Of a stretch of 64,000 nt of DNA, positions 5,355 through 27,815 are shown in pieces. Within the stretch, counting starts at the first letter, position 1. Every line of letters starts with the position of its first letter. The notes beneath the pieces were generated by a model. That model made no database searches and had not been told where the DNA came from. It was given only the letters and a program-made list of their open reading frames with translations. Both the position numbers and the translations under genes were made by a program. Source of the DNA: Raillietiella orientalis (lineage: Eukaryota); NCBI GenBank assembly GCA_036172245.1, contig JAYWIR010000012.1, positions 2,914,001-2,978,000 of the forward strand, given 5' to 3'.

Positions 5355-5660
5355 GCAGCGGCGGCCGCGCGGATGAGGCGACCCCCACTCGTAGTACCGA
5401 ACGTCTTGGGTTCGAATCCCACCCGGAGACGGACGGGGCGTGCGCCGTTGTGGGCTCGAGTTCCCCGTAAGATGACTCTGGTTGGCCTGCAGACTTCGGG
5501 TTTGGAAGCCGGGGACCCCGCATGCCCCCGTTGACTGGCCAGGAAGAAGTCGACATTCCAGGAACCAGGTTCCCTTCGGGGTTCCTGTCCGGCTGTAAAA
5601 ATAGAGCCTTCCCTCTTTTCAGGGGGGGGACCCCCAGTCACGTAGCATGGAGCTAGTTTA
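5355..5660 (+). mobile_element. tRNA-derived SINE, copy 1
   Basis: B box GGTTCGAATCCC at ~5409-5420. Core GATGACTCTGGTTGGCCTGCAGACTTCG...CCCCGTTGACTGGCC is shared with 24962-25255 and, more diverged, with 63520-63810. Tail is CATGGAGCTAGTT. Confidence 0.75.
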
Positions 5661-5684
5661 TATACCCCTGGGGGTTTGCCTCCC

Positions 5685-5835
5685 TAGAGTGTTAAGGAGA
5701 AGCGCGCTGCTCCCTTCGAAGAGCATCCTTCAGGGACACTGAAAAGCGTCCCTTCGGTGTTCTCTTCAGAAGAGGAAACCAGGAGCTGTCCCTTTCCGGG
5801 GGGTCCTTCGATAGAAGAAACTCGAGGAGCGGATT
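5685..5835 (-). repeat. Dispersed repeat 'R', abutting the SINE tail
   Basis: Reverse complement (GAAGGGACGCTTTT...GAAGGGAGCAGCGCGCTTCT) matches 24880-24940, 58088-58145 and 63840-64000. Confidence 0.75.
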
Positions 5836-7149: not shown

Positions 7150-8284
7150 CCCAAAAAACAAAAAACAGATGATCAGGCCATGCGGATCCATTAGAGTGTT
7201 CCAAACTTTCCAGGAGGAGGGGGAAAAAGGAAAGAGAACTACCGATGCGCAGTCCGGCTGCGCAGGAGGACAGGGAGGGTGTAGGGTAGGAGACAGGAAA
7301 TCAATAGATAAAAAGGAGGATGGGACGGGAGTCACCGGTCGCACCATGCTCGTCTTCTGCAACCTGCGTGCGATGCAGGCGGCATAAGGAGGCTCCTTCA
7401 TCCTGATGCCCTTCAGGGACCAGCTTGCCACGTGCTCCATCCCTGCGGCGTTGGGGATCGTGACCTTTCTTTTTTCCTTGCTGGAGAGCCTCCCGCGCGT
7501 GTCTCGGGACGACACGATCCTCCTGGCGCGACACGGAATGGAACAATCGAGGGGAGCAGACGAAAGCCAGTCCCGTGCGAGGCGGCGCCTCAGCGGCTAC
7601 TCCGGGGTGCCTTCGGGTGTAAGCGGGAAGGCCGCGGGGAGTTCCCGCACGCCCCGAAGGTCACTGCGGTCCGGCAGAGGGTGCGTCCCCATTCCTGCAG
7701 GTGGTGCAGTGGCGCCATCGCCGGAAGAAGGGCGGCGTCTTTCCGGGCGGTGATCCCGCTGGTTGCACTGGGAACCGCAGCTCAGACAACGGCAGAGCCT
7801 CCTCGAGCAGCTGCCACCTGAGGGGTGGCCAGAGATGCCCTCCAAACAGATGGAAGGGGTCGCAGTCTGCGAGAGCGAAACGTCCGGCTGTTCTGCCCAG
7901 CGCAGCAGCTGCGCTGTGTTTAGCGCGTGCGCTGGGTGTGGCCGCGTTAGCCGGCACCACCAGCCCGCCAAGCCCGCCGACTCTGCTGCGAGGTCACTCA
8001 CACCCAGCCAGCTGGCAAACGCCGCTTCTCTCCCGTGGGAGGGCGGTGCTGCAGCTAGTGGGGTGGCGGTGGCTCGGTTGGTCCCTTTCCACCTCCTCCG
8101 GGGAGACCGCTCCCGTTATGCGGATGGGGCGTATCATGCGGTGGCGCCGGTCCCGGCATGGAAATCCAGGTGCCGAGCGTTGTAGTTTGCGGGGATGCAG
8201 GAGACGTCGTTCCCAGTGGACAGAGATTTGCCTCGCTGGGTACCGGACCATATTCATCAGTCTCGGTTGCGAGGTAGCAACGGG
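7150..8284 (-). repeat. Inverted copy of 565-1700 (and of 14330-15465)
   Basis: Highly similar reverse complement; the same ORF translations appear on the opposite strand. Confidence 0.95.
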
Positions 8285-8699
8285 CGCCATCACTTCAGTG
8301 GTACTCAGCAAATCACACATGGGACTTGATTTTCTCTTCACTTCATCATGAGATGAAGATCATAGGTCGAACTCTCACGAGATGTGGTGTCACACCAGAC
8401 TGAATCTAGAAATCCATGAGTCAGAACTACTGATGTTTTCTGTGATGGGAGAGCTGGAATGCAAAAGGACTGGTCTGAAGAGAGCTGAAGAGTGGCTCAT
8501 TGCGACAGAATCCGCAGAGTTTTTCCGGTGCTGTTAGCACTGACGTGTGGAGGTGGTCAGGAAGGAGCATGATGTGACCCGCGGATCTTCCTGGCCACCT
8601 GCAAGTGGGGAAGCTTCAGACTTTCATCTCTGGTCTGCATGCAGGAATGGAGAAGCGGCCACTGAAACTTGACCGATCGAGACTCGGCGAATCACTCTG

Positions 8700-13129: not shown

Positions 13130-15477
13130 AGAGACGGCGACACAGGTAATTCCCGTCGCCGTTGGTGGAGCTTCCAGTGGGCAGCGTGTCTTTAGGGACG
13201 CCTCGGACGCAATTCGACGTCGCGTTTGCTGCTACAGGCGAGAGACTCTCTCGCGAGAAGAACCGGAGCAGCGCTTCAGCGGGCGTACTCTCCTCCGGAT
13301 GCTGTAATGCTGAGACCAGCCAGCCTCCCTTTCTACAATAGATCGTGGACGCACGCAGCTCATCAGCAGGTGGGAGGGAAATTTCATCTCCAAGCACATG
13401 CCACACTCTCCTCCATGTAACGCGGAGCAGACCCTAGTGCAAGTGGTCGCGTTTCCATAGGAGGAAGAGCACGGAAGTGTCGAGGCACAGGGAAGGGACG
13501 AACAGTTCTCCCGGAAGCGCACTAACTCGAAATTCTGCTCATCTGACGAGTCCCTTTGCGTGAGTTCATAGCGCAGCCGTGTTGGCCGACACGCGAGGTG
13601 CATCCTCCTGGGAGTTTCTTCACTCCTGCTGTTCTGCAGGACAGCTTCCACCTTGGCGGCTGGCAACTGCCGCTCCTTTCCCACGGGGAAGGCAGCACCG
13701 CATCCAAAGGTGTGCTTAATTCACTTGCTCGGCTTCTCAACGATCCTCTGCAGGGACCTAACAAATAGTTGGACCTGGACGAGACCCTCAGGGCTGGTGT
13801 TGGTCAAGAGCGCCCGGATATCCACGAGTTCCTGCCGCCAAACTCGAAAGTTCAAAGGGCGATAGGAGATTCACTCGTTGGTCTCCAGCACGAAATCAGA
13901 TGCATAAGGGTAAAACTCCAAGAGCCTCATGCATCCTCCAGAAGACAGAAATGGTGCCGAAAGTGTTCCTAGACAGCAAATCCTGCCTGCAGAAACGCGC
14001 GACTCCATTCGGAGTCGCACGTTCCAGCGTCTTCGATATCTTCGATAATCTCCCTTTTTGCTTTGCTCCATTCGTACGAGGCGAGGCGTAGGACGTAGAC
14101 CTCCTGCATAAAATGCTGTGGGGCTCTTCACGGCCGAAGGCGCACCTCAAAGACCCAGTCGCACCACGAGGACGTGCAGAACACGGCGGCATCCTGACGT
14201 CAAGCAAGATGGCGCCGCAGCATCAGATCAGGATAAGGTCCTAGATGGTCGAAAAGCGGATGCGGAGCTGGTGCCAGTCCGCGCGCGCAATCCCGAGACA
14301 CGTGGTCGAGGGTTGCCGGGGAACGGCTCCCGTTGCTAACTCGCAACCGAGATCACGTGAAGGCGCTCGAGTACCCAGAGAGGCAGATCTCTGTCCAGTG
14401 GGAACGGCGTCTCCTGCATCCCCGCAAACTACAACGCTCGGCACCTGGATTTCCATGCCGGGACCGGCGCCACCGCATGATACGCCCCATCCGCATAACG
14501 GGAGCGGTCTCCCCGGAGGAGGTGGAAAGGGACCAACCGAGCCACCGCCACCCCACTAGCTGCAGCACCGCCCTCCCACGGGAGAGAAGCGGCGTTTGCC
14601 AGCTGACTGGGTGTGAGTGACCTCGCAGCAGAGTCGGCGGGCTTGGTGGGCTGGTGGTGCCGGCTAACGCGGCCACACCCAGCGCACGCGCTAAACACAG
14701 AGCAGCTGCTGCGCTAGGCAGAACAGCCGGACGTTTCGCTCTCGCAGACTGCGACCCCTTCCATCTGTTTGGAGTGCATCTCTGGCCACCCCTCAGGTGG
14801 CAGCTGCTCGAGGAGGCTCTGCCGTTGTCTGAGCTGCGGTTCCCAGTGCAACCAGCGGGATCACCGCCCGGAAAGACGCCGCCCTTCTTCCGGCGATGGC
14901 GCCACTGCACCACCTGCAGGAATGGGGACGCACCCTCTGCCGGACCGCAGTGACCTTCGGGGCGTGCGGGAACGCCCCGCGGCCTTCCCGCTTACACCCG
15001 AAGGCACCCCAGAGTAGCCGCTGAGGCGCCGCCTCGCACGGGACTGGCTTTCGTCTGCTCCCCTCGATTGTTCCATTCCGTGTCGCTCCAGGAGGATCGT
15101 GTCGTCCCGAGACATGCGCGGGAGGCTCTCCAGCAAGGAAAAAAAGAAAGGTCACGATCCCCAACGCCGCAGGGATGGAGCACGTGGCAAGGTGGTCCCT
15201 GAAGGGCATCAGGATGAAGGAAGCCTCCTCATGCCGCCTGCATCGCACGCAGGTTGCAGAAGACGCGCATGGTGCGACCGGTGACTCCCGTCCCATCCTC
15301 CTTTTTATCTATTGATTTCCTGTCTCCTACCCTACACCCTCCCTGTCCTCCTGCGCAGCCGAACTGCGCGTCGGTAGTTCTCTTTCCTTTTTCCCCCTCC
15401 TCCTGGAAAGTTTGGAACACTCTAATGGATCCGCATGGCCTGATCATCTGCTTGTTTTTTTTTTGTGTGTTTTTTTG
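13130..15477 (+). mobile_element. Degenerate L1/Tx1 ORF2 (RT through 3' UTR)
   Basis: Degenerate RT motifs in order: RPASL (RPISL), AEQT (EQT..V.GR), HLTSPFA*VHS (LD..KAFDRV.H), SKGVLNSLARLL.DPL (QGCPLSP.LF...EPL), followed by GGLGL-like and CCHC remnants. Confidence 0.6.
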
Positions 15478-16257
15478 AGGAAAAGGAAGGCCGCATCGTA
15501 ACTCGATGGAAACGGCGTCAGCGGGAGTTGCGAGGAGAGTTCCAATGCAGAAGGAAAAACCCGCAATGGCGGCCACCTGAAAAGGAGCTTCGTGCTTTTC
15601 AAGCACATCGGAGGGACCCCTACACCTGCTAATGGGATGGTAAGAAGGCCTACAAATCCTAAGGAGTGAGGTTGTGGGGTCACTCGTCTGTGCGCTGACG
15701 TGCGTAAACGTCAGGACCGGCTGCCCAGGAGTTTCATGCTTCCTGAAGTCTCGCAGGTGGGCTGCAGCCTCACTGTCTCACGGATCACTTCCACAACATG
15801 GCAGGGTGTTCTGTTGCTTGCGCATGCGCCATTTGCTCGAGGCGCGCGAGCTGCGGGATACTTCGTGCTACGGCATCCGTTTCTTCAGCGGACGGAGCTT
15901 CCTTTTGGTGTCGTCCACGTTTTGCTGCCTCGACCCATGTCGGGAAAAGGGGTGCGCGCAAGTGAAGGGAGGGATGTGTGCCGTCTTCTGAGAGTATCCT
16001 CGTGAACTCACGCTCAGCACGAGATCACCCATCCAACTTTTCCATCCTGCATCGAGGGAATGGTGGCACGCCGTTTTCTTCTTGTTGACATCTCCGTGTC
16101 TTTTTGCATCACTTGGTTAGTCGTCCGATCTGGAGATTGCACGATGAAGATTTCCACCTTCCTTGAATTCTTGTAGTGCGGTTGCTGGGCAATGGAGGGG
16201 GCGAGAGACGTCATCGGTACGATCTGTTTCCCTTCTTGCTGGAGCATCAGATCTAGA
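14074..16257 (+). repeat. Segmental direct duplication, copy B
   Basis: Near-identical to 309-2492. Confidence 0.97.
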
Positions 16258-16499
16258 TGAGAAAGAGGTTGACTGGAAGACATCAACTCTTCGTGTTCCA
16301 GGGTCTGGGCTACTAGTTCGCGATGTCTGGCAGCGGTTATGGTTGTACTGTTGATGCATCAATTGGGAATGTGCTAAGGCTTTTAATTAAAACATGCTAT
16401 GGATGGGATCTCTGGCAGCCAGGCTGCAATGTTTTATGTTCAGACCTTTGGTTTCTTTGTTACCCCTCTTGGGTTAGCAGATTGTAAACAAGAGAATGC

Positions 16500-24239: not shown

Positions 24240-24620
24240 ATGAACCCTTAGGCATTCCTGTCGCTCTCGAGTCGAAAGGACAAGCCGAGCTCTTTCCGCC
24301 TTGCGAAAAATTTGATTGCTTCTTCCCCGGAGTCACGTTCAGTAGCAACAGGAAGAAGCGGACTTCCAGGATTCCCGCAAAAGAAAGGGGAAAGTGAAAA
24401 GATGGCGGGCTGGAAAATCCTTCAGAGAGTTGACATCCTCGAAACTTGAACTGCTCGCTCCACGGAACGGATGGAACGGAAAGGATGGAGCACACTCTCA
24501 ATATGAGGGCATTTTCAGCAGTCCCCAAACGCATACGTTTAAGGAATCCCGCGGAACATCCCTTTTTCATTTGGTTCCCTAAGAACTGTTTTTTCCACGA
24601 GCTCACGAAGCTCTTTAACA
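24240..24620 (-). mobile_element. Possible hAT dimerisation-domain remnant
   Basis: ILSVPSVPWSEQF resembles LSIP.SS..SER.FS. Confidence 0.3.
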
Positions 24621-24639
24621 CCGTCCGCGCAATACGAGG

Positions 24640-24950
24640 GTGCGTGTTGGCTCTTCAAGCTAGGGGGTACCCCGGGAAGAGGCCACCCTATGAATCCAAG
24701 AAGAATCTGGAGGAAGGCGTCCGTTTCCCTTACGCTTGGGAGGGAACCCCGAAGGGAACCACCTCTTCCCTATTTCTCCGGATGGATTCCAGAGAAGAGG
24801 GGCCGCTTGTTGTTACTTTTCCGAAGGAAACCCACAAGGGAACTGTTCCTTCTTTGTTTACTCCTCTAAAGAGAATCCCTAAGGGACGCTTTCCAATTTC
24901 TCTGAAGGGTCCTCCCCGAAGGGAGCAGCGCGCTTCTTTCACTCTGAAGA
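24640..24950 (+). repeat. Dispersed repeat 'R', long copy
   Basis: GTGCGTGTT..CTCTTCAAGCTA..GGGGG...CCACCCTATGAATCCA is shared with 57811-58150. Confidence 0.85.
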
Positions 24951-24961
24951 AACAGCTTTGC

Positions 24962-25255
24962 AGCTCCATGGCATGCGATGGAAGATCATTCCCGGAGGGA
25001 AGGACAGCTCCCTTTTCACAAGCGGAGGGCCAACTTCCAATCCCGGCCGGTCAACGGGGGCGTGAGGGGGGTTTCCGGATTCCACCAATGCCACACTCGA
25101 AGTCCGCAGACCGACCAGAGTCATCCTAAGGAGTGGGAGACCGGAAATTCTCGACGTACTCTCCATTTCTGGGCGTCATTCCTTCCCCAGGCGGGATTCG
25201 AACCCGCAACGTTTGGTTTCCCGCGCGGAGACCGCAGTTACACTGCCGCCAACGC
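24962..25255 (-). mobile_element. tRNA-derived SINE, copy 2
   Basis: On the minus strand: A-box-like TGGCGGCAGTG, B box GGTTCGAATCCC, shared core, and CCATGGAGCT tail. Confidence 0.8.
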
Positions 25256-26379
25256 TGGAAAACATTCCTTCTGAAGATGCGCAGTTCGCTTCAGAAATCA
25301 ATCTGAGTGGAGTGCCATTTCATTCTTAGTGAAGAAAGAAAGAGGCGCAGTTTTTCTTTCGTACTAAAGGAAAGGGCTGGGCCCAAATGAGGCGAGGGAT
25401 TTGTGTTGTCTTCGCTGGCCGCGAGCGGGGAAAGAAGCTTGAACGGTGGAAGAGAAACCTGATCCCTACATGATGGGCTCCCAATATGGCTACCGCTTTT
25501 TATTTCTAATGCATGTGGCTATTTGGTAAATGGAATACTGGAACAAAGGGTTAATGAATGACTTCCGGAACCATGACAGCGAGCAGTCCCCGTTCCAGAA
25601 GTTCATTCAGGAGAAATCGAAGCAGACGATGATGCGCACTCTGGAAGGGCTGCACTTCGTCTTTCTGGTATGAATTATTCACGAGTGATAATCATCAGAC
25701 AAGTTTGACAGGGGGACAGAGACATGAACGGACACAGAGCAAGCTTTCGCTCGAACATCCGAAACAACAACAGCAGCGAAGAAAATAATCGACGATGCTC
25801 TGATGACATCGGCGGCTGGAAGTCATTAAACTTCCGATGGGAAAACAAAAAAAAAACAAAAAAGGAAGAAGAAACTCATTGAGCGGAAAGATGAAGTGCT
25901 TGAGATATACGCATCGATGTCTTCCATGCATAATTGAGTGTTTTTGCTCAGTTTCATTCTGCGTCGGAGGAAGATAACTCTGGACATTTTGTTGTTGCTG
26001 TTGTTCCTCAAACGCAACTGTGAAAGCTGTGCGGCCGCAGTGATGGAAACCACAGGATGCTGAGGGAGTTTGAGGGATCTCCGAATCCTATGAGGCACCC
26101 TTCGTACTGTGCGGCTTTTGATCGAAGGTTTTTCACTGGTTTGTCCTTGTGCAACTCATCGGTTCCGGAGTGAAGCCACGCGGAGGATGCGACTCTGGAT
26201 CTCTCTCTTACGCTCATGCCAGCAAAGCGCCTGCTATCCAGGATTCCGACGAAGATTAAGAACTAGGTGGAATTTGGTAGCGCATTGCGGAAGAGTTGAA
26301 AGACTTACAGCTCGATTGTAATTCCGGGGATACAGGAGCCTTCAAGCATGCCTCTTGCATCATGCAGTAACCGATCAGC

Positions 26380-27475
26380 TAGGAGGAATTTGACAACTTC
26401 GCATCGAATCCTGAATGTAAATCCTGCTGAAGTGTCTTGTTCTCCTCTTCAAGCTTCACGTGGCGTCTCTTCGATTCCGTCACGATCTGTATCATGCATC
26501 TCGGATGCATCTTTTTCAACCATGCTTGTCAGCAATCCGTCTCTCTCTTCCGAGGAGACACCATCCCACTTTCACAACTGAAACAAGCGCAGTTTTGCCG
26601 TTGACTACAAGGTCGGAACGTGTTGCTCCTGCTCTGAACCAGCAACGAAATCTGCACTGGCACGTCCGCCGCCTCTTTCAGAGTATTCTGTGCTTCCACG
26701 CTGCGTGCAATCAAGGGTGCCACGCTTTACAGAAAATGAAAGCTCACCTCCACTCTCTGCCCATCACTTATGTGTCTCTCCAGCAGCCGTTCCACAACTG
26801 TCACTTTTCGCTTTAAGGAATGTTCCAATTCCTCCATTTTATGTGAGATGCGATCTTGAACAGATCTCGGATCAAGTCATGTGGAGGTAACTCATCTTTT
26901 GTAACAGTGGGAGCATCTTTCGAGAAACATTTATTCGTGTACTGCTACGCTCAGACACCCTTCCACCCTTGGAAACAAAATCTTTCTCCTTAATCTCATC
27001 CAATCTTGAGAATGGCATCCCGAAGAGGCGTTTGCGTTCTGCGAAGCTCCTTCCTGCATCAGGATTGGGATCGGTGAGGATACGCATGTGATCAAACACC
27101 CCGGTTGAATGCGTATCTCTTGAAAGCAGAACACGGTCCGACAGATCGCCATCCACATCTCCGATCCCAGCGACAGTTGCATTTGGGCACACGCCCTCAT
27201 TCGTTTTCCGAAAATGCCTCCGTGCAGCAATCCGCGCACCTCTTGCAGCGATGCCCACTTTCCCGTGGTCGCAACCTACTGATACAGCAGATGCGATCGC
27301 ATCGCCGAGCCAAAAAATGTATTCAGGGGCCATTTGCTTGGCACAATCAGGGAACAAAGCAACGTCCTTATCTGCCGCACCTACTAAGTATGGATCATCT
27401 TCATCATATCTAATTACTCTCCCTGGTGGAATTATCTTACCACCAGTTACATCACCAGTAATATCAAGCAGACAG
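26380..27475 (-). pseudogene. gdhB: Bacterial large NAD-specific glutamate dehydrogenase fragment, Wolbachia/Anaplasmataceae-like horizontal transfer
   Basis: LLDIT..V..GKIIPP..VIRYDEDDPYLV.AADK, FWLGDA.AS..SVG.DH, GIGD..GD and DPNPDA.RSFAERKRLF. After frameshifts: NGGIGTFLKAKS (~26803-26838), LDCTQRG..EY, SDLVVN.K (~26595-26618) and GVSSEERDGLLTSMV. Confidence 0.93.
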
Positions 27476-27524
27476 GGGTCTCGTTCGAAACCGGGAACGC
27501 CGGAATCCCGAAAGATCATAGGAA

Positions 27525-27815
27525 AAAAAAATAACATATATGCTTTATTCTATGTGGATTCCTATACAAATTTATTTTAATGTACCGAGTTTTCCTATTT
27601 ATTAACACATGTTATTAGCAGACATATTCGTTGGGATTCAGCGCTACATGCATTTTATTAATATAATTCATAAGCTGATTGATTATGTTGTTGATATATA
27701 CATTAAAGATGATAACAAATGTACATTCTTATTGCACAGATTCATGTAAAGATTGATACATGGATTAACATACATCATGAAGATTATAAAAAATAAATTT
27801 ATGCAAGGGCATGCA
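27525..27815. other. AT-rich island
   Basis: Sharp composition shift adjoining the GDH fragment. Confidence 0.8.

Follow-up and report, generated by a model that had tools for sequence, protein, structure and literature searches.

A decayed Wolbachia gdhB fragment in a GC-rich chromosomal block of a host that is most likely a pentastomid

Pieces of Wolbachia DNA in host nuclear genomes (NUWTs) are well described and are regarded as neutral fossils of past infection (PMC12693587; PMC5541319). One account gives average sizes of 434-2038 bp, cites F-type fossils in Dictyocaulus viviparus, and covers filarial and arthropod hosts, some without a live infection (PMC12693587). The locus described here is like those NUWTs in being short, scattered, nonfunctional, and neutrally decaying, and its size overlaps with theirs. 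It is unlike them in its host, a pentastomid according to mitochondrial evidence, and in the strong shift of its GC content. In the isopod Armadillidium vulgare, the f element is likewise Wolbachia DNA in a crustacean nucleus, but with its more than 3000 genes and its role as sex determinant (PMC5541319), it contrasts with the single dead kilobase found here. The large bacterial NAD-glutamate dehydrogenase (GdhB, ∼1570-1610 aa, PF05088) is the protein with whose catalytic part the fossil is collinear. Unlike GdhB, the fossil lacks the front of the catalytic domain as well as all ACT and C-terminal domains, and what is left is frameshifted, so that it cannot be an enzyme. One study places Wolbachia in snake mites and not in pentastomids (PMC10911609), and our search of mainly openly available full-text literature found no report of Wolbachia in pentastomids. 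What is new is the mitochondrial placement of the host among pentastomids, and the interest of the fossil lies in that host lineage and, more tentatively, in a regional drift from AT to GC.

The window, meaning the whole 64,000-nucleotide stretch of DNA that was analyzed, covers positions 2914001-2978000 of contig C12, a 4.5-Mb contig in an assembly of 210 Mb and 491 contigs. By sequence comparison, its positions 27470 to ∼26370 on the minus strand are confirmed to be a dead, ∼1.1-kb fragment of Wolbachia gdhB, the gene for the large NAD-glutamate dehydrogenase, with a DNA identity of 68-71% to crown Wolbachia. As a sequence, the fossil is an ordinary nuclear Wolbachia transfer (nuwt) without function. 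It and its surroundings comprise the following features:

27476..27805, no strand assigned: one arm of an AT-rich, MITE-like dispersed repeat of the host, with 59 genome matches
26872..27549, minus strand: listed open reading frame (ORF) of 225 aa, stop to stop, from the ORF list; chimeric and not a gene
26470..27470, minus strand: core of the gdhB fossil, GdhB residues ∼845-1180, defined by blastn, tblastn, Pfam PF05088, and a list of indels
26370..26469, minus strand: degraded 3′ tail of the fossil, from the multiple alignment, with deletions of ∼5 and 22 bases
25300..26369, no strand assigned: downstream flank without a recognized repeat or Wolbachia match in the genome search, blastn, and tblastx
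24592..25288, no strand assigned: host repeat that carries a B-box motif like that of tRNA genes and matches other host loci

The core of the fossil corresponds to the second part of the catalytic domain, including its NAD-binding motifs, and is interrupted by frameshifts and stops. In blastn it is 70.5% identical to a Wolbachia locus (L011) over 1023 columns (E 1e-155), and in tblastn it forms a single continuous alignment to residues ∼845-1172 of a 1571-aa Wolbachia GdhB (E 3e-67) that runs beyond the stop of the ORF to ∼26497. The tail retains a residual match near 26400-26370, less strong than that of the core and not included in the BLAST alignment. Altogether the fossil amounts to about one-fifth of the 4.7-kb gdhB gene. 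The ORF at 27549-26872 matches positions 153-345 of the 497 in the Pfam model Bac_GDH_CD (PF05088; E 2e-55) and is collinear with residues 870-1057 of a solved large NAD-GDH (7a1d_A; E 9e-42). Positions 1-152 of the model, the front of the catalytic domain, are missing from the fossil, and the domain is not complete in one reading frame, with frameshifts from ∼26920 on. The remainder of gdhB was found neither by tblastn of the 64-kb window nor when 164 kb were compared by blastn with 1.2 Mb of a Wolbachia genome (G001), and a genome-wide search with the full GdhB query returned only a separate 165-base scrap on contig C13 and no intact gdhB in the assembly.

The ORF is a composite of ∼26 codons from the host repeat, ∼178 in-frame codons of the fossil, and then out-of-frame sequence, such that homology to gdhB begins inside it, at 27470. 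The first-pass annotation had recognized the dehydrogenase from a series of collinear motifs, and these are all present on the minus strand: RHFRKTNEGVCPNATVAGIGD, MPFS, and INVSRKM are inside the ORF, NGGIGTFLKAKS lies past its stop in the same frame, regained after deletions of 7 and 5 bases, and SDLVVNGK is in another frame near 26620. Its further claims, that homology continues beyond the listed ORF through frameshifts and that introns are absent, also hold. Homology extends to 26470 in blastn and to ∼26370 in the tail, and the fossil contains no intron-sized insertion, the largest being 3 bases.

The fossil decays neutrally and was never under selection as a protein. Nine Wolbachia share 644 invariant sites, and the fossil differs from them at 161 of these (Jukes-Cantor distance ∼0.30). 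At such sites, the frequencies of A/T-to-G/C change are 0.269, 0.276, and 0.268 for codon positions 1, 2, and 3, respectively, as compared with differences of 0.078, 0.033, and 0.234 between two living Wolbachia (L011 vs L014). AT-to-GC transitions affect synonymous sites (20 of 92) and nonsynonymous sites (77 of 315) alike (p=0.68). Of 79 near-invariant residues, 22 differ in the fossil, and six of the 11 indels cause frameshifts. It is very improbable that the 5′ part nonetheless served the host temporarily as an exon or a protein. That reading could draw on the 178 stop-free codons, on the first two indels being in frame, on the lower divergence near the 5′ end (85% identity in the first 88 bases), and on one version of a test of conserved codons in the open 5′ part, in which 36 of 114 had changed relative to a neutral mean of 48.8 when whole-fossil rates were used (P=0.007). 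But with the local rates of the 5′ part itself, the same test yields P=0.12, and we read the shortage of changes as a lower local rate and not as selection. The open frame needs no selection either, because 178 codons stay free of stops in 14-23% of runs of a neutral model, and AT-to-GC drift would have helped to keep the frame long by sparing some stop codons. Transitions in the open 5′ part are as frequent at synonymous (14/58) as at nonsynonymous (39/166) sites, core motifs are broken, and the start of the frame comes from the repeat.

As assembled, the fossil is embedded in host chromosomal sequence, in a 4.5-Mb contig and with a host repeat at its junction. The MITE-like repeat starts within ∼6 bases of the 5′ break of the fossil, truncates the fossil there, and contributes the initial 26 codons of the ORF. 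The ends of its copies line up at 27475-27506, and many copies have inverted arms, often in inverted pairs. The repeat probably arrived after the fossil, an order that we infer from the lower divergence of the repeat copy; A/T-to-G/C changes are fewer in it (31/197) than in the fossil (96/394; p=0.02), in a comparison for which the two consensus sequences are of different kinds. On the other side, the downstream 1.17 kb (25300-26470) has one genome match, itself, in a search that can miss very common words. The repeat at 24592..25288, which we infer to be SINE-like, is ∼1.1 kb beyond the fossil and has inverted partners at 5396-5784. The fossil is single copy, and no other Wolbachia match is present within 164 kb in a comparison with 1.2 of the 1.39 Mb of genome G001. 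A scan of 162 of the 269 ORFs of at least 95 aa in the window yielded no Pfam match in the 161 others. The idea that repeats flank the fragment on both sides therefore stands for the upstream side, with its 59 matches, and fails for the downstream 1.17 kb, which matched only itself, and the description of the surroundings as a graveyard of transposable elements is only partly borne out.

The conclusion that the fragment is an old nuclear transfer and not contamination, which was drawn before these analyses, is supported by the neutral decay, by the abutting host repeat, and by an AT-to-GC drift like that of the neighboring repeat copy. If the fragment were a contaminant, or a bacterial read joined chimerically to host sequence, its source would be a gdhB that has six frameshifts and has changed equally at every codon position, which no living bacterium would carry, and it would still have to be explained why its composition has drifted in the same way as that of the host repeat copy next to it. 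We regard this possibility as scarcely credible.

The donor was Wolbachia. Among the best 120 of 1857 homologues, all hits named Wolbachia are within ranks 1-47, and identity is 53-60% at ranks 1-48 versus 46-52% at ranks 49-120. DNA comparisons used 11 named loci, 28 of 30 further loci, and 20 more distant family members; the fossil has an identity of 0.65-0.71 with crown Wolbachia, as against 0.58-0.60 with the Anaplasmataceae sister clade and 0.55-0.56 with outgroup rows. In a tree of 45 rows, after 15 near-duplicates of 60 rows were dropped, the fossil is inside a crown Wolbachia clade of 31 rows (support 95/95), and its placement outside Wolbachia is rejected (p-AU 0.0038). The homologue search and tree thus support the earlier assignment to Wolbachia or Anaplasmataceae and, together with the identities, narrow it to crown Wolbachia. 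Within the crown, the fossil joins at the polytomy and with no particular supergroup, on a long branch (0.85) and with a base composition unlike that of other rows.

The composition of the fossil has changed from 0.38 to 0.49 GC. At invariant sites, A/T-to-G/C changes (96/394) and G/C-to-A/T changes (22/218) predict an equilibrium GC of 0.71. The reverse tendency is found in a Wolbachia patch on contig C34, in DNA of 37% GC, where the corresponding counts of 227/2661 and 148/1117 predict an equilibrium of 0.39. The two differ in bias (Fisher p 2e-5), with ratios of AT-to-GC over GC-to-AT rates of 2.4 and 0.64, respectively, a difference of about fourfold. The adjacent repeat copy (27476..27805) agrees with the fossil, having 31/197 A/T-to-G/C and 1/26 G/C-to-A/T changes relative to its family consensus. 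Three small pieces, too short to judge, have equilibria of 0.48, 0.70, and 0.35 (the last on C41, with a flank of 0.45). Pooled copies of the repeat have an equilibrium of 0.50, a weaker shift than that of the fossil, and across 19 copies, nearly all with GC-rich flanks, GC content of the copy is not correlated with that of the flank (rho 0.06). NUMTs were left out because they cannot be polarized; their values are 0.33-0.54 for longer pieces.

The fossil is in a sharply bounded, ∼150-kb block (C12, ∼2874000-3020000) that is mostly 47-62% GC, between DNA of 32-39% GC. Observed over expected CpG is 0.79-0.93 in the block versus 0.45-0.72 outside. One fossil, one neighbor, and one contrasting patch, all compared at the level of sequence, tentatively suggest that the bias is regional. 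Its cause may be GC-biased gene conversion or mutation bias. The former is the usual cause of such patterns (PMC12405890; in the case treated there, TE-rich regions are GC-poor, the opposite arrangement). A targeted editing enzyme was considered and is unsupported, in that the context of A-to-G changes has no strong motif (rates of 0.17-0.35).

The first-pass annotation had proposed scanning the assembly for other Wolbachia-like fragments, and dozens were found, with identities of 63-97%. A 12.7-kb Wolbachia query has four matches, namely the gdhB fossil, the C13 scrap, and pieces on C1 and C41, which from their translations are presumably ClpB-like and PleD-like, respectively. One 20-kb Wolbachia query has 49 putative matches, spread over 28 contigs, and another has 35, spread over 21; the two lists overlap, and a few of their 84 matches could be host genes. 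Many of the 84 pile up on IS-like segments that are repeated more than 100 times in Wolbachia. By extrapolation, there may be hundreds of pieces genome-wide. The contrasting patch on C34 (2035001-2042160) is a Wolbachia patchwork of more than 7 kb with ∼80% identity and includes a coxA-like stretch. The C1 piece (L041:1273-1745) consists of three Wolbachia scraps, joined end to end, whose three sources lie far apart in the Wolbachia genome, and the C41 piece (L043:939-2334) is a mosaic of four.

The C13 scrap (2085293-2085455) is a younger piece of gdhB, with 84% amino-acid identity to the full GdhB query. Its DNA is 91-95% identical to seven loci of an F-like clade, 92% to wStur, and at most 88% to the rest of those listed. 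The F-like clade includes a locus whose translation is identical to P0047, from the Wolbachia of Meromenopon meropis, a supergroup F strain (PMC9903615), and wStur is reported as supergroup P (PMC10652925). The evidence leans toward the supergroup-F-like clade as the closest to the scrap. A second Wolbachia scrap, of 89 bases, is ∼100 bases from the first, and the C13 scrap adjoins a host gene with short introns in DNA of 35% GC.

The widely spread identities of these fragments point to a long or repeated infection. Such DNA might instead derive from Wolbachia in an insect that served as intermediate host, or in food, with the germ line of the parasite itself never infected. Invertebrates are the first intermediate hosts of Raillietiella orientalis (PMC10355681), and the assembly contains neither an intact gdhB nor, in a strict search, a bacterial 16S that would signal live Wolbachia, although such contigs were possibly removed before release. 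However, dozens of fragments of very different identities on dozens of contigs would require repeated access to the germ line by this route, and according to PMC12693587, such fossils are records of past infection and other routes are unlikely, a statement made for nematodes. We judge transfer from food or an intermediate host to be distinctly unlikely and favor past infection of the germ line.

Two mitochondrial proteins with long branches indicate that the host is most probably a pentastomid crustacean, placed outside the clade of Linguatula and Armillifer. In searches with COX1 of the assembly (contig C282), Armillifer is hits 1 and 2 (77% and 76%) and Linguatula hit 4 (75%). In the COX1 tree, which includes no branchiuran or ostracod and carries a long-branch warning, the host is sister to Linguatula + Armillifer (100/99). 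Pentastomids are also the best four hits of NAD5, for which Argulus americanus has rank 12; a quick tree search again places the host as sister to Linguatula + Armillifer, with Argulus outside (SH-aLRT 96). In the host mitochondrion, nad6 is directly followed by cytb, an order that is also ancestral and therefore argues only against Argulus. The same order is reported for Armillifer moniliformis (PMC12202648), and nad6 is not followed by cytb in Argulus japonicus (PMC10999652). The order of tRNA genes before cox1, assessed by eye, is unlike those of both Armillifer and Argulus. Membership in the order Cephalobaenida (PMC10355681) would be consistent with a placement outside the two sampled porocephalid genera.

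The nuwt could be correctly identified and the host nevertheless be another, fast-evolving arthropod drawn to pentastomids by long-branch attraction, or the mitochondrial contigs could derive from a second organism. Besides the warning on the COX1 tree, the margins of identity are thin, with 75-77% for pentastomids versus 71-74% for insects in COX1, and 53-56% versus up to 54% for others in NAD5. Yet COX1 and NAD5 agree under a site-heterogeneous model, and NUMTs that are 66-94% identical to the host mitochondrion are present in large nuclear contigs, and those at up to 93.5% tie the mitochondrion to the nuclear contigs. A host other than a pentastomid is in our view rather unlikely. A COX1-like match with an internal TGA on C12, the contig of the fossil, is probably a NUMT. 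In all, there are 54 COX1 matches in the assembly, nearly all NUMT-like and several of multiple kilobases, and the genome thus takes up cytoplasmic DNA readily. On C282, the tRNA-Leu region after cox1 occurs twice, ∼510 bases apart (L021:1737-2313), only ∼200 bases separate nad3 and nad5, and by eye a trnW-like gene is just before cox1.

We hold with considerable confidence that the locus as a whole is a nonfunctional nuwt in a pentastomid host that was later hit by a MITE-like element and has drifted with its GC-rich block. In the history that we propose, a germ-line Wolbachia in an ancestor of the host would have shed DNA, and a piece with part of gdhB would have been captured in a chromosome, presumably by double-strand-break repair. 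The captured piece would then have gained ∼0.3 substitutions per site and 11 indels. Later, a host MITE-like element may have landed at the 5′ end of the fossil, or deleted it, and AT-to-GC substitution in the ∼150-kb block would have raised GC content from 38% to 49%.

Pentastomida are crustaceans and obligate endoparasites of vertebrates, with zoonotic and invasive parasites among them. If the host placement is true, the historical host range of Wolbachia extends to them. We think it likely that the pentastomid germ line was infected by Wolbachia for long or repeatedly, including at least one recent F-like strain, that the fossil is an older trace among what are probably hundreds, and that Wolbachia may persist in some pentastomids, as it does in filarial worms. 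At the same level of confidence, nuwts would secondarily report AT-to-GC drift in GC-rich, gene-poor blocks and none in AT-rich blocks of genes. The question this opens, and one that can be tested directly, is whether extant tongue worms harbor Wolbachia or even depend on it. Nuwts also measure regional substitution bias, because the ancestral sequence of a nuwt is nearly known. The value of the fragment is as a record; the fragment itself does nothing.

Two minor observations concern other sequences of the assembly. Three matches of the 16S search are the host 18S (L044) or its copies, and C23 (L045) and C19 (L046) carry mutated, dispersed copies of that rRNA gene. Within the window, a recent 2.2-kb direct duplication (309-2552 and 14074-16304), whose copies are 98.8% identical, is accompanied by an inverted, 1.1-kb third copy (7153-8288; 96.9%), and the ORFs tested in these copies have no Pfam match.
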